Positions 1,039 to 19,000 of a stretch of DNA of 34,127 bases are shown piece by piece. Source of the stretch: Planctomycetota bacterium (GTDB lineage: Bacteria; Planctomycetota; UBA1135); contig JASFYO010000070.1 in the NCBI GenBank assembly GCA_045047305.1, positions 1 to 34,127 on the forward strand. The letters run 5' to 3'. The number at the start of each line of letters is the position of its first letter. Position 1 is the first letter of the stretch. The position numbers were made by a program.

Positions 1039-4000
1039 AGTGTCGACAATCGGGCATTTACCGCCACCGATATGATGCAAATACCAAACCCAAGCCTCTG
1101 GGTTAATCGGCTCACCCACACTGCCGAGTAAACGTAAAGAACTCAAATCATGTTGTGCGGGGTGTTCATCGCCCCACTTCATAAACGCGCGAATCGCAGT
1201 CGGAGCGGTATAGAAAACCGAGACCTTGTACTTTTCAACTAACTCCCAAAAGCGATCCAACTTAGGGTAGTTCGGTGCGCCTTCATACATGACTTGGGTC
1301 ACACCATTCGCCATCGGTCCAAACACGATGTAGCTGTGCCCAGTAATCCATCCGATGTCGGCAGTGCACCAATAAACATCGCTTTCCGGCTTCAAATCAA
1401 ACACCAGATTCGATGTCGCCAATGCGCCTGTTATATAGCCGCCAGTGGTGTGCAGAATCCCTTTTGGTTTGCCGGTGGTGCCGCTGGTGTAAAGGATGAA
1501 CAGCGGATCCTCTGCATCCATCGATTCCGGCGCGCATGTGGTCGCTTGGCCTAGGACCACATCGGCCCATGTCACATCGCGATGCAAATCTTCGGCAGAG
1601 CTTTTTAACGTACCTCCACGTGGCCACACTAAAACGTTTTCTACGCTTGGGCAATCGGCAACGGCTTCATTGACTACGGCCTTCAGATCTAAAGTTTTAC
1701 CGCCACGCCATGCGCCGTCCGCGCAGACGATCAACTTGGCTTCTTGGTCCTGCACGCGGTCCTTTAAGGAGGTTGGGCTGAATCCTGCGAAGACTACCGA
1801 AAAAATAGCTCCAATGCGTGCGCAAGCCAATACCGTCATGGCAAGCTCTGGCACCATCGGCATGTATAAAGTTACGCGGTCACCTTTTTCAATTCCAAGA
1901 CTCTTTAAGCCATTCGCCACCTGACAAACACCGGCCAACATAGCGGCGTAAGTGAGGGTGCGGCAATCACCGGGCTCGCCTTCGAAGTAGAACGCCACGC
2001 GCTCGCCGTTTCCCGCATCGACATGACGGTCCAAACATTGCACGCTAGCATTCAACTTGCCGCCGACGAACCACTTTGCATAGGGCAGCTGCCAATCTAA
2101 AACCTTGTCCCACTTTTTATCCCACTGCAGCTTTTCCGCCCAACTAGCCCACCAACTTTCATAATCGGCGTCAGCGCTGGAGTACACGCCTGGGTCGGAG
2201 ACATTGGCGGCGGCAACAAACTCAGCCGGCGGCACAAAAGTACGATGCTCGGAAAGCAGAGTATCGATGGTTTTAGGTGAGGAGTCGGTCATCGTTGATT
2301 CAGTCCGGCGCAAACGCCACGAGGGGAAGTCAAAACAAAGTCGGCAAGTTCGCGCACGGCGGGGAACTCACTGGAGGATAGGGATTGTGCAATCTCACCG
2401 GCAGCAGCTCCAGGAGCAAAAATTGCACGCAGGGCTTTACGGATGGCATCGCACTCAGCGGGTTCAATGCCGGCGCGTTGCAGTCCTATACGGTTGGCAC
2501 CGCGCCAGCGATTGGGGTGTGCGCCGGTCACCATGGAAAAGGGTGGGGCGTCGCGAGTGACCATGGATCCGCCAGCAACCATGGTGAGGCGCCCGACCCG
2601 GGTGAACTGATGCACTGCAGCGTTTCCGGACAGAATGCAGCGTTCGCCGATTTGGGCGTGGCCGCCGAGTGCGCTGCCGTTGACCAGCACCACATCATCG
2701 CCTACCACACAATTGTGTCCGACATGACTGCCGGCCATCATGCGCACGCGCGCGCCCAAAACCGTTGCCTGGCCTTCGCCGGTCGCGCGATGGACTGTGG
2801 TGTGCTCATGAAACTGACAATTTTCTCCAATCCGCACCAAGCTGCGCGCGCCAGCATATTTGTCGTCCTGAGGCTCGCCGCCCAAAACGGTGCCCGCGCG
2901 CAAGATACATCCCTGTCCTAACTCTAATCGTCCTAACAGGTGCACCTGCGGGCCGATACGGCAGCCGTCGCCAATGACCACGCCCGGCTCCACTACGCTA
3001 AAAGGGCCGATTTCCACGCCTAAACCGATTTCGGCACCGGGCATAACCACGGCCGTCGGATGGAAAACGGTCTCGGCGGGGGAGGAACTCATGCAGATAG
3101 TCTAGAAAATCTCCTGACTAAGAGGCTCGTGCGGCGTATTCTGAGCGACGTCCGCATCCTACGCTGAAATCTCCGGAGACATCCCTTGAATCTGCGAACC
3201 CATCTCGCCGCACTCTGCGGCACCCTACTTCTTTTTTCTGTCCCAGCTGTAGCCCAGGAAACGGGCTATTCCCTTACCTACGTCATCCAAGCGGATGGCG
3301 CATGGGTGGGGCCGGGTGTTTATCTCGAACCTGCGTTTATTCAGATCTCCGACGGCCGTGTCGCCTGGATCAGTGAGAGCGATCAGCGGCGCGAGGGCAA
3401 AAACATGCTCGGGCGGTCCACTGGCAAGACCAAGATGATCACCGTGAAGGGTATTTTGGCCCCTGGCATGGTCGATGCTTGGAGTACCTTCACGCCGTCC
3501 GACTTCCTGCGGGAACGGAGCCCTGGCTCCACCCGCAACGTGGAAGATTCTTTGCCTTTACAGGTGTCTCTGGAGGATCCTCTACTTTATGCCACGGTGA
3601 TCGCTGCACGCCAAGCTGGAGTTTCTGCCACCTATATGGCTGGTGGTCAACGTGGATTACGGCGCGGTGTTGGTACTGCGGTGGAGTTCACAGCGCTTGA
3701 CCTGCCCTTAAAGGCTGGACATCAGGCTCTCGACTTTGCCGTTGGTTCCGCAGCAGTTCCTGGCTTTGAGCGCACATACCAGTCTGAGGAGTTGTGGGAC
3801 GCCTTTGAGGAAGCGCAATCCTGGCGCGCGTCCTGGGATGATTACGATGAGGATGTAGAAAAGTACGCCGAGAAGCTGGAGAAGTATCAGGAGAAACTCG
3901 AGAAGTACCTCACTGAGAAGAAGGAGTGGGATGAGAAGCAAGAGGCCAAGGGGTCGATGGCTGGCGAAGGCGATAGCGATGAAGCCCCCAAGGCTCCCAA

Positions 4001-16000: not shown

Positions 16001-19000
16001 ATGCAGTCGGTCATCATTGGAGGTCGTGAAGCATGGGCCTGCGCCGGACGTCTTGGTCGTGTCGGTGCACAACTGGTGATTACCCCACGCGCAAAAAGTT
16101 GGGCCGATGACAGCCTTAACCGCCCGAGTGGTTGGTCGATTGAGAATGCGCGCATCCTGTGGGAGCATGGCGTGCAGTTTGCCATCCTTCCGGCGCAACG
16201 TTTCATCTCCACCGGTGGTATTGCAGGGCGTGACTTACTTACCTTGCCGATGGAAGCAGCCTTCGCCATTCGGGGCGGCTTGCCGCAAAACGTCGCGCTG
16301 CGTGCGATTACTTTGGATGCGGCTAAACTTCTTGGCGTCGACCACCGTTTGGGATCCATCGAAATCGGAAAAGACGCAGATTTTATTCTGTGCGATGGCG
16401 ACGTCTTCCACTACCGCACTTTTGTGCAATGGGCTGTGGTTGATGGTGCTGTGGTGTACGACAAGATGAAGGCACCTTACTTTGCTCACATTCGCCCGCG
16501 GGAAGCGACTTCCTTGGATGAGGTCATCGAGGAAATCAAAGATGCAGTCGATGCTGAAGCCGAAATCATCGAAGAATCTTCGTCGGAAGTTGCTTCTGAC
16601 ATCGACGCGCCGGAAGAAGATTAATCATCCCCAAAACTGCCTTGGCAGAATCAAGAGGGCGGGCCATAATCGGCACGCCCTCTTTGTCGTGAGTGGCAGA
16701 TTTCTTGACTAATCCAGTTCTTGCCCCCGGGAACCGCGCCCCCGCATTTACCTTGCCCACCGATGGTGGAGGCCGGGTGCGTTTGACCGAACATCGTGGA
16801 CGTTGGGTGGTGCTTTTTTTCCTGCCTCCAGCACTGACACCTAGTTGCTGTTTACAGGCGAAGGAATTTCAAAGTACGGCAGACAAGTTTTGGGATTTAG
16901 GAGCGGTTGTAGTCGGAGTCAGTCCCAGCGAGCATCACCGTCATCTCGAGTTCCGCCAAAAGAACAATCTCGATTTTCCTCTATTGCACGACCGCGACGC
17001 CAAACTAGCGATTCGTTATGGTGTCTATCGGGAACGCAAAACCAGCGTCCGCAACTATTTCGGAATCGTGCGCACTACAGTCTTAATTGATCCGGCCGGT
17101 AAGGTTGCCCATCTTTGGGATAACCTGCGGGTGAAGGGGCATGTCGGACGTGTTTATTCTCGCTTAGAGGAGGAGCTCCAAGGTTAATTATGCCTGACGG
17201 TATCCGCCCCCTTCTTCATCGGATCTCAGGATCGGTCAGCGGCGGTCGCATCCATAATCTCAGCGCCGAAGCCGCAGAGAAATTGTTCGGTATGCTGTTG
17301 GCCGGCGAGGGAACCGATGCGCAAATCGCCATGTTCCTTGCCGCCATGAGGGTGAAGGGAACGACTTCGGAAGAGCTGGTTGGGGCAGCACGAGCCGGTC
17401 GTGCACGCATCGTGTTCCCAAAACTGCCGCCGAATTGTGTTGTTGTCGCCACCAGTCGTCATGGCAAGCATCACAGCCCACCGATGGTTCTTGCCGCCGC
17501 CGCTGCTGCCGCATCCGCCGGGGTTCCAATCTTCTTGCAGTCTGCGCCAAGCCTGATTGGTGGTGGCGTGACTCCTGGAGATGTCTGGCAAAGAATGATT
17601 GGGCCTTTGCTGGGGGATGCGCATCACGCCGAGGAGCACCTACAAGAATTCGGTCTTGCTTGTTGGCAACCCACCCTTGCTGATGATGGCTGGCAGCGTA
17701 TGCAAAGAATCGAGGACGAAACGGGTATCCGTGGAATTCCAGATGTAGTGAGCAAACTCATGTTGCCCGAACACTGCGCCGTCTTGGCCGCCGCGCTTCC
17801 AGGGCCGGTACTCGGCATGGCTGGCGATGCCTTTGAAAGCCTCGGCCATACCCAATGCATGGTGGTGCAGGGAGTGGAAGGCTCGGTAGATCCCTCGGTG
17901 GTGGAGACTACCCGTGGGTTGCGTTTGCTGAATGGCGTGAAGGCTCCGGTGCGCCTCCGCCCTGGTGATTTCGCTTTATTCGAGGAAAGCGAGCCGAGTG
18001 GCATGCATGAAGATCCAATTGAGGCTGCGGTTATGGCTACACAGCAAGCATTGCTCACCTCTACAGGACCTGAAGCTTGTGCGGCCTCGCTTGGTGCTGC
18101 CTTGCTCATTAGTTTGGCCAACCCAAACGACGACTTGGCTTCCTGTATGGGACTTGCAGTCGACGCCGTCGAGTCTGGGGCAGCCTCCCATTTGCTGCAG
18201 AAGTTAAAGAACAGCTGATGCCTCCAGTCCTGCGTTCCCGATAGGGAACCAAACGCAGTGCTATCCTGACCCACCATTTGGCACAGCATTTGCTTCCTTG
18301 GAATCATGCGTAAGCTTCTTTTTCTTCCGGTTTTAGCCCTTGCCGCCTGCGGTCACGCAGATGTCAGGGTGGAGGAGGGGCAAGCCGTCGCCGAAATCAC
18401 GGTGACCAGTAATTTTCCAGCTCCTGTTGCCTTAGAGGTCGAGTCGCTGCCTCGCTTGCTCAAAATAAGCCCGTCGATTTACTCTGGGGCTCAACCCCAC
18501 ACTGCCGCCTCCTTTGCAGCGCTCAGGGAGTTAGGTATTAAGACCATTGTTTCGGTCGACGCCGCGCCTCCCAATCTCGAGGCCGCTGGCAAGGAAGGCC
18601 TGCGCTATCTGCACGTACCGATTGGTTACGACGGCATTTCTCAAGCAGCAGGCGACTCTTATTTCCGCCTGATGGGGGAAGTGGATTTGCCGGTTTACTT
18701 TCATTGCCATCATGGTCGGCAACGTGGGCCTGCCGCCGCCGCGATTGCTTTACGAGCTTCCACCCAATGCGATGCAGCCACGGCCTTGGCTGTCCTAGAA
18801 GCAGCTGGTACCAGTCATAAATATGAAGGCCTTTGGCGCGATGTGGAAGCATGGATGGCGCCGCGTCCGGATAAACAACTTCCGGAGCTAGTGTCCTTGC
18901 AGAAGTTGAATCCATTCGTGGTGAAGATGGCCGAGATTGATCGCACTTGGGACCGCATCAAGCAAATCCGCGAGCAGGATTGGAAATCGGTTTCGTTCAT

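Follow-up and report, generated by a model that had tools for sequence, protein, structure and literature searches.

A conserved nine-gene array of amidohydrolase-fold paralogues in Planctomycetota as a candidate periplasmic heterodecamer

Rings in which each place is held by its own paralogue are usually seen as a eukaryotic product of duplication and drift. ClpP/ClpR of plastids and cyanobacteria, the 20S proteasome and CCT are homomeric rings which turned heteromeric, with some subunits being non-catalytic, and their folds differ from that of the array analysed here. The immunoproteasome possesses exchangeable catalytic isoforms. In bacteria, such rings are known with one to three types of subunit; the forms with many subunits are found in eukaryotes and are not known to be encoded in a single operon. 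COMMD1-10 are described as ten paralogues forming a ring of five specific heterodimers, derived from a single-gene homomeric ring (PMC13392464). According to the same source, the heteromer is eukaryotic and the prokaryotic forms are single genes; the fold is unrelated to that of the array and has no catalysis. Within the amidohydrolase superfamily, a dead chain of Pseudomonas aeruginosa, the pseudo-dihydroorotase, is reported to be needed as a scaffold in the assembly and activity of the ATCase dodecamer (PMC7053772); as described there, it is a single dead type, cytoplasmic, and supports an unrelated enzyme. The amidohydrolase 3OOQ of Thermotoga maritima is listed with dihedral D5 symmetry and an oligomeric count of 10 in supplementary file 3 of PMC9556563, and is given as 'dihedral' in 10.64898/2026.08.06.736029. 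It consists of ten identical ligand-bearing chains from one gene, the deposited chain has no signal peptide, and a literature search found no function for this structural genomics entry.

The window (34,127 nucleotides of contig JASFYO010000070.1 from a Planctomycetota bacterium) contains nine plus-strand ORFs, named A1 to A9 in gene order (Table 1), and the two domains of A5 are named A5n and A5c. All nine reading frames are intact and coupled, with intergenic gaps of 2, 2, 6, -4, -4, -1, 17 and -4 bases from A1 to A9. As A5 carries two domains, the nine genes encode ten amidohydrolase domains, which share about 21-33% pairwise identity in full-length alignments; the summed mass of the nine chains is estimated as about 480 kDa. 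The A1 insert is long and charged and is positioned after the Lys strand. The linker between A5n and A5c has a median of 16 residues (105 rows). The A5c insert was found in 97 of 105 A5c sequences; its beta part, of no known family, gave no Pfam match and no Atlas match at >=0.9; in the fold search, the hits were taken up by the first domain. A literature search found no published account of the array. The ten domain types, the fusion pairs and the link to a D5 decamer homologue are new here.

Table 1. Array genes and the A5c insert in the window
Feature	Position	Strand	Description
A1	3186..4559	+	dead, 0/6 ligands, signal-like N-terminus
A2	4562..5641	+	dead in the present genome, 0/6 ligands
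A3	5644..7095	+	dead, Lys the sole ligand left
A4	7102..8451	+	dead; first His and Lys conserved
A5	8448..11336	+	two dead domains fused (A5n, A5c), short linker
A5c insert	10170..10730	+	helix of ~55 residues, then eight-strand beta domain
A6	11333..12538	+	catalytic subunit type a: H85, H87, K166, H230, H256, D311
A7	12538..13734	+	catalytic subunit type b: H83, H85, K166, H228, H254, D310
A8	13752..15101	+	dead, 3/6 ligands in the present genome, long charged insert
A9	15098..16624	+	dead, 0/6 ligands; N-terminal arm acidic and Pro-rich

An earlier note had described nine tandem paralogues with ten amidohydrolase-fold domains, and this description holds. Eight of the nine proteins matched Pfam Amidohydro_1/3; A1 matched neither Amidohydro_1 nor Amidohydro_3 at E<=0.01, and was placed by alignment of its profile with the catalytic profile (probability 100, E 2e-57). 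A6 matched 3OOQ by phmmer (E 1.8e-34) with all six ligand residues identical. The predicted model of A7 (pLDDT 94.1) aligned with 3OOQ at a Foldseek TM of 0.85, and every other structure scored 0.63 or less. The model of A5 had a pLDDT of 92.5 and a pTM of 0.77 for both domains together, and its A5n domain aligned with 3OOQ at Z 40.0 (rmsd 2.6, 353 aligned), the runner-up having Z 24.2. As judged from these models, 3OOQ is by far the nearest solved structure for one live and one dead domain; the 3OOQ-type fold was assigned to the remaining domains by profile alignment. The array shares with 3OOQ this fold and the six ligands, and differs in having nine genes, with ten distinct domains of which two are live, and in its predicted export. 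The next-best structures were Cc2672 (3MTW), 3FEQ/3N2C, 3BE7 and ochratoxinase (4C65), with TM of about 0.56-0.63. Many relatives are labelled in databases as the imidazolonepropionase HutI; this identity was rejected, as the top score against TIGR01224 was 45.8 bits (A6) with a cut-off of 298. The common label 'imidazolonepropionase-like' covers mostly non-enzymes. Xaa-Pro dipeptidase was the top NCBIfam model for six of the nine array proteins, all far under the cut-off, and this identity was likewise rejected (NF051886, 63.7 bits for A5 and 58.1 for A6, with a cut-off of 500). The position of dipeptidases among the next-best structures and as best NCBIfam model is suggestive of amide or peptide hydrolysis. 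The dipeptidases and carboxypeptidases so far characterised in this superfamily are single-gene homo-oligomers and show at most 17-18% identity to the array.

The six ligand positions were defined on A6. At these positions A6 and A7 read HHKHHD, the two-metal set of HxH, Lys, His, His and Asp, and the ligand residues suggest a two-metal site in both. The remaining eight domains of the present genome keep 0-3 of the six. HHKHHD was also read in the first catalytic gene of all 175 arrays. HxH was absent from A1 (147/147, with 0-2 ligands), A3 (155/155) and A8 (164/164), and A9 kept 0-1 ligands in 158 of 158. Among 154 arrays, A2 carries HxH in 15 and the complete ligand set in five, the intact site being found in two families, so the catalytic places differ between lineages. 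HxH was also observed in nine of 163 A5c and one of 163 A5n sequences. Restriction of HxH to A6 and A7, and the pseudo-enzyme nature of the other eight domains, are therefore correct for the present genome, and across relatives A2, A5c and A5n make exceptions. A4 conserves its first His (137/160), its Lys (143/160) and a loop Glu (96/96) with the second His in none of 160, and its His and Lys may be a remnant or a non-metal site.

The array proteins of the window have signal-like N-termini. The hydrophobicity rule for a signal peptide, judged also by eye, held for 863 of 916 array proteins and for 10 of 205 in a control that used a narrower window and was not matched to the array set. Lipobox or Tat motifs were few. 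From these N-termini the array proteins are predicted to be exported to the periplasm.

The same order with an own orthologue at each position had been claimed for the array, and all 129 loci examined were contiguous and in order. A limitation to the class does not hold, as 19 of 20 loci from other families showed the complete order with profiles trained on the class only, and A6 was matched in 77 of 251 phylum genomes, next to 150 of 151 in the class. A9, a dead member, was matched in 75 of these 77 phylum genomes; both genes occurred in 75, A6 alone in two, A9 alone in one and neither in 173. All positions were present in 144 of 175 distinct arrays, and wherever one was missing, the contig or locus edge was reached in every listed case. 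In G209 the operon is split and both blocks are retained. Twenty database proteins were looked up, and three had an organism name, two being Planctomycetota and one a sediment metagenome fragment. Even an assembly of 2.8 Mb devotes 13 kb to the array.

The positions form specific clades with mean identity of 29-41%. Tree support was 98-100 each for A3, A4, A5n, A5c, A8, A9 and the catalytic group, in an alignment built without position profiles, as per-position alignment would favour position clades. A1 and A2 were less clean, with one A1 row placed inside the A2 clade through a long-branch join. On this sequence evidence, the array subunits are paralogues, each an old lineage, which are retained as a set. 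Tandem arrangement and lost catalytic residues could also be expected of a recent expansion whose extra copies are decaying; the low identity among the ten domains, the intact frames and the conservation of each position in more than 25 family codes leave this explanation practically no chance, and it was ruled out by orthology and conservation.

The genes need not act in a single complex. One or two free enzymes could work beside separate, co-expressed periplasmic binding or sensing proteins built on the dead fold, and the formation of a number of small dimers is another option; operon order by itself is no proof of contact, lone catalytic genes exist outside arrays (three, L144, L155 and L157), and the conserved His, Lys and loop Glu of A4 are a possible binding pocket. 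This explanation is improbable, since A1, A5n, A8 and A9 show free variation where the active site used to be, which is not expected of a conserved pocket, genes for transporters or receptors do not accompany the array, and independent binders should be gained or lost singly whereas no array examined lacks an internal position. A flanking gene common to the whole phylum, which could point to the substrate, was not found around the arrays, and promoter and terminator scans at the array gave chance level only.

The number of active copies had been put at 1-4, and the actual range of catalytic genes per array is 1-5, with five in tandem in G046. One catalytic gene is present in 84 of 144 complete arrays, which therefore have nine types, and four in nine of 144. 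A7 lies outside the A6-type clade (SH-aLRT 99), to which the single genes from many other families belong. Of 176 loci, 61 carry both types, with type b invariably the last; the A7 type was present twice in a single array. Expansion is seen only in the A6 type, with duplications confined to single families. These trees place A6 and A7 in separate lineages, both of them old, hence the full array has ten domain types. The A6-clade members of the class are interleaved with those of other families, which may make the A6/A7 split harder to date, through transfer or hidden paralogy; support of the a/b border was 0.34 in a larger FastTree. A single clade for all class catalytic genes was rejected by the AU test (p 9e-6), the group being named after tree inspection, and the class A6-type genes alone likewise do not form one clade. 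Old lineages with only the A6 type expanding make a fixed number of catalytic places probable. The catalytic core of the earlier note thus varies in copy number, and probably not in size, its places being filled by exchangeable isoforms.

Taken with the fixed order, the position clades, the all-or-none occurrence, the neighbour fusions and the ten-chain homologue, a single hetero-oligomeric complex from the array is likely. The pseudo-enzyme scaffold proposed earlier would stand in this form, without the core of variable size. An exported decamer, made up of five dimers of which one is the catalytic slot, is a reading whose chances we consider evenly balanced, the ten places in D5 arrangement being drawn by analogy from 3OOQ. 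Here a 3OOQ-type D5 homodecamer would be the ancestor, and nearly every ring place would have received its own gene, the dimers following gene order as A1-A2, A3-A4, A5n-A5c, A6-A7 and A8-A9. The two-metal sites of A6 and A7 would cleave a C-N bond, most likely of a peptide or an acyl-amino-acid amide. The other eight domains would have lost the site and been retained since each place requires its own subunit. With a single catalytic gene, one product would fill both places as a homodimer, and with three to five, the additional A6-type copies would be exchangeable isoforms. The long charged helices of A1, A4, A5c and A8 and the beta domain of A5c may provide a docking or gating face of an asymmetric ring. 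Still more tentatively, the bacterial heterodecamer may be asymmetric throughout, derived from a homomeric D5 enzyme ring that split early in Planctomycetota into ten non-interchangeable subunits in one operon, with five dimers in gene order, eight scaffold places and one swappable catalytic slot. In that reading A2 is captured at several stages of site loss.

The proposed layout is that described for COMMD1-10 (PMC13392464), with the full split placed inside bacteria and in one operon. In the array, the dead chains would be of eight types and support paralogues of their own, unlike the one dead type of the pseudo-dihydroorotase. If true, COMMD, CCT and the proteasome would have a counterpart in the bacterial periplasm, and the array would offer a compact test bed for the passage from homomer to obligate heteromer and for the indispensability of dead subunits. 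The steps can be followed in living genomes, with a decamer from a single gene, forms of two or three types, arrays of nine or ten, A2 intact or decayed, and one to five catalytic genes. The array is near-universal in one class and its set is kept over many families, and it points to a putative core periplasmic activity of these bacteria.

Natural fusions without internal signal peptide join A1=A2, A5n=A5c and A8=A9, three of the five consecutive pairs, and point to contact between the subunits, the number of events being too small for a statistical test. A5n and A5c are always fused, A1 and A2 are fused in two families plus one additional array, and A8 and A9 in L036, P0153 and P0154. No A3=A4 fusion was seen, and A1=A2=A3 fusions (family f70 and five database proteins) span a proposed dimer border. 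Catalytic genes showed no genuine fusion; when the catalytic profile was used to look for longer proteins, which is weak evidence, it gave 32 matches with no genuine array-type fusion among them. Three candidates were discarded: P0122, a seeming fusion of catalytic type b and A8, is due to a frameshift in L120 and its A8 retains its own signal peptide; L217 shows a frame slip at an N gap; and the A4=A5 fusion of L025 is a run of N. Inter-subunit covariation, shallow with 152 arrays and an effective number of about 82, recovered plausible within-domain contacts and showed no excess for neighbouring genes over non-neighbours. Complex prediction for A7 and A8, which border two proposed dimers, scored 0.00 twice (mature chains, 109-row alignments, controls not folded) and speaks neither for nor against contact.

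A heteromeric assembly of another size, with nine places, twelve (eight dead and four live) or an open periplasmic filament or lattice, is possible, though we hold it to be rather unlikely. Fixed membership and order fit any ring size or filament equally, and the nine types of the single-catalytic-gene arrays match nine places as the four-gene arrays fit twelve. The five catalytic genes of G046 exceed four live places, however, the extra copies are single-family duplicates and not four fixed lineages, and the only solved homologue has ten chains. Against the decamer, relatives possess dead=live=dead triple fusions, one of them in the same genome (contig C3), compatible with 6, 9 or 12 places; as a 1:1:1 unit cannot tile ten places, ring size is not fixed within the family. 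None of the array's dead domains falls within either dead clade of this triple type; the two clades are mutual sisters (97, with one two-gene member, deep nodes being weak). The array as a dead-live-dead module repeated three or four times was not supported on this ground, and origin by a 5+5 block duplication was considered and not supported by profile or tree comparisons. The uncharacterised two- and three-domain members of the subfamily (contig C3, Gimesia, Bacteroidota, Ignavibacteriae and fungal) share the fold of the array, carry one live and one or two dead domains, often fused and exported, and have two or three types only, in clades apart from the array positions. An Atlas cluster of two-domain proteins is mostly from Verrucomicrobiota.

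The nine amidohydrolase-fold genes of the array, A1 to A9, are co-oriented and abut or overlap, with intergenic gaps from A1 to A9 of 2, 2, 6, -4, -4, -1, 17 and -4 bases. A5 is composed of two domains, A5n and A5c. Eight of the proteins matched Pfam Amidohydro_1/3, A1 giving no match, and no NCBIfam model came near its cut-off with the array proteins. Full-length pairwise identities are about 21-33%, which marks the set as old. Each of the nine chains has a short, hydrophobic, signal-peptide-like N-terminus. Of 916 array proteins in the loci collected by then, 863 passed a simple signal-peptide rule, whose control was not matched. 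Among the surveyed loci, no flanking gene was common to the arrays beyond related genomes. The TrpD-like gene was found downstream in 30 of the examined loci, all or mostly of the class of the source genome, and a second LpxA-like gene is present on contig C3 of that genome.

Coordinates of the array, its neighbours and related features (C, contigs of the source genome; L, loci)
Feature	Sequence	Positions	Strand	Remark
LpxA-like hexapeptide acyltransferase gene	window	2289-3092	-	divergent from A1, 93-base gap
A1-A9	window	3186-16624		nine genes
Peroxiredoxin (AhpC/TSA) and TrpD-like glycosyltransferase-3 protein	window	16693-18218	+	after array
Weak phosphatase-like domain fused to cytochrome c'-like C-terminus	window	18306-19226	+	CxxCH motif; kept in 17 related loci
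Two adjacent small multicopper-oxidase-domain genes	window	20194-22101	+	first with twin-arginine-like N-terminus
Large protein with A5c-like beta domain	C73	1-3554	-	E 2e-10
Large protein with A5c-like beta domain	C3	21084-24923	+	E 5e-6
Triple-type protein (locus L121)	C3	153764-158014	-	1416 aa, exported
Unrelated membrane protein	L168	7669-9399	-	between catalytic gene and A8; sulfatase-like by eye

The array is genuine, very old and strongly conserved. Profiles of the single positions, trained solely on loci of the class, were applied to 20 loci from other families, and the order A1 A2 A3 A4 A5n=A5c (= denotes fusion), catalytic gene, A8, A9 was recovered in 19; in the exception, genome G209, the first five genes lie as a block elsewhere. 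All 129 loci of the first survey were contiguous and ordered, as were 60 added afterwards with three exceptions, namely a frame slip at an N gap, a mistyped edge fragment and an inserted unrelated gene. Since the loci were picked via the catalytic gene, losses of dead genes (metal ligands lost) would have shown. All positions were present in 144 of 175 arrays, and these complete arrays carry one (84), two (34), three (16), four (9) or five (1) catalytic genes, nine domain types being the commonest state.

Profile alignment placed the six ligands of A6 at H85, H87, K166, H230, H256 and D311, and the same set is found in 3OOQ, a Thermotoga maritima amidohydrolase of the same subfamily; from the superfamily, we take these to bind two metals via a carboxylated lysine. 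In the source genome A6 and A7 keep all six, A8 three, A4 two, A3 and A5c one each, and A1, A2, A5n and A9 none. Removed before the ligand counts across arrays were 11 duplicate rows, two arrays with frameshifts, the three catalytic genes that stand alone, 20 loci belonging to other family types and any domain with <250 aligned columns. All six ligands are retained by the first catalytic gene of every distinct array (175 of 175). HxH was found in none of A1 (n=147), A3 (n=155), A4 (n=160), A8 (n=164) and A9 (n=158), and was present in A2 (15/154), A5c (9/163) and A5n (1/163). Five A2 proteins of families f7 and f63 (loci L145, L147, L037, L168 and L178) retain the complete ligand set, in each case beside a single catalytic gene that is A7-like (type b); A2 is decayed in L167, which has two type b genes. 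As the link is seen in just two lineages, no rule can be based on it.

A6 was matched in 150 of 151 class genomes (E<=1e-30); the sole genome with no match, G120, has a completeness of 84% and gave no A8-type match either. In a phylum sample A6 was matched in 77 of 251 genomes (of the 231 from outside the class 57 matched, for the most part as entire families) and the dead subunit A9 in 76. Kin within this sample do not count as independent; both subunits occur in 75 genomes, A6 alone in 2, A9 alone in 1 and neither in 173; in both genomes with A6 alone the array runs into a contig edge. Named carriers include many Phycisphaerae, and close relatives carry Planctomycetota source names, except one labelled Myxococcota. 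One genome, G183 (contamination 5%), has two complete, divergent arrays on contigs C339 and C63 (L165, L160), one of which carries an A1=A2 fusion.

In a tree of 107 rows from seven distant arrays and other family types, aligned with no use of the position profiles, A3, A4, A5n, A5c, A8, A9 and the catalytic genes each formed one clade at support 98-100, while A1 and A2 were less clean and deep nodes weak. In a catalytic tree of 68 of the rows collected by then, A6 grouped with the single catalytic genes of many other families (type a, support 99), and A7 and its like fell outside. The catalytic patterns of 176 loci were a (102), ab (37), aab (15), aaab (8), b (7), aa (2), aaaa (2), aaa (1), aaaab (1) and bb (1), counts in which the border of clade a is poorly supported by the larger, faster tree used and edge-cut loci may hide a gene. 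Type b invariably takes the last catalytic place. The patterns indicate that arrays can lose either of the two catalytic genes. Additional copies stem from duplication of type a inside families f2 and f6; with two old catalytic types and duplicates so confined, the full array has ten domain types. Type a genes of the class are interleaved with other families in the tree, so transfer or hidden paralogy may be involved.

The A7 model (pLDDT 94.1) showed TM 0.85 to 3OOQ, next entries reaching <=0.63, and dead A5n matched 3OOQ at Z 40.0 (next best 24.2). 3OOQ has ten chains; it is listed as dihedral D5 with oligomeric count 10 in supplementary file 3 of PMC9556563 and termed 'dihedral' in 10.64898/2026.08.06.736029. 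The A5 model (pTM 0.77) suggests a defined packing of A5n against A5c. Long charged inserts follow the lysine strand in A1, A4, A5c and A8; the median distance between markers is 140, 88, 216 and 115 residues, respectively, compared with 70 for catalytic subunits. In A5c the insert comprises a helix of 55 residues and a beta domain.

Genuine fusions join their domains through short linkers and lack an internal signal peptide; three apparent ones were discarded as artefacts. A5n=A5c is fused throughout, A1=A2 in families f23 and f75 besides G183, A8=A9 in L036, P0153 and P0154, and A1=A2=A3 in family f70 and five database proteins. When the genes are counted off in twos (A1-A2, A3-A4, A5n-A5c, A6-A7, A8-A9), three of the four fused junctions fall inside a pair, and A2=A3 crosses a border. 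These few events are no more than suggestive of such pairs.

The array products probably form a single complex, and the chances of its ten-place form are about even. The chains, probably exported and of 3OOQ-like fold, would fill one ring of ten places from five dimers, with the chemistry left to A6 and A7. The bond cut is most likely a peptide or acyl-amide bond, given the ligand set and the nearest characterised structures (carboxypeptidases, dipeptidases and ochratoxinase). A single catalytic gene would serve as homodimer and several would supply isoforms, which differ in the loops near the site. Dead subunits would be retained because the ring places have each become specific; docking or gating of the particle may be the role of their stalks. 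Against ten places stands the commonest state of nine domain types, and against a single complex the three lone catalytic genes.

Judged by this predicted assembly, the array would belong with homomers turned heteromers with dead subunits; comparable designs include ClpP/ClpR, the proteasome and CCT. Nearest to it are the COMMD heterodecamer, which consists of five heterodimers and descends from prokaryotic homomers (PMC13392464), and the dead dihydroorotase that acts as scaffold in Pseudomonas ATCase (PMC7053772). The array is unusual in that it is bacterial, probably exported and divided into nine or ten types, all encoded by a single operon. The literature search, with subscription papers and preprint supplements outside its scope, found neither a description of the array nor a function for 3OOQ.

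Other members of the subfamily are single genes, live=dead pairs or dead=live=dead triples. As a 1:1:1 triple cannot fill ten places, size is flexible in the subfamily. Pairs in which the live domain precedes the dead one, about 800-960 aa in length, are represented by P0144 and P0148-P0152, five of them named fungal. Triples are common among other Planctomycetota and in further phyla, and this type, too, seems undescribed; the L121 protein of the source genome is such a triple, and its beta domain is akin to the A5c insert.
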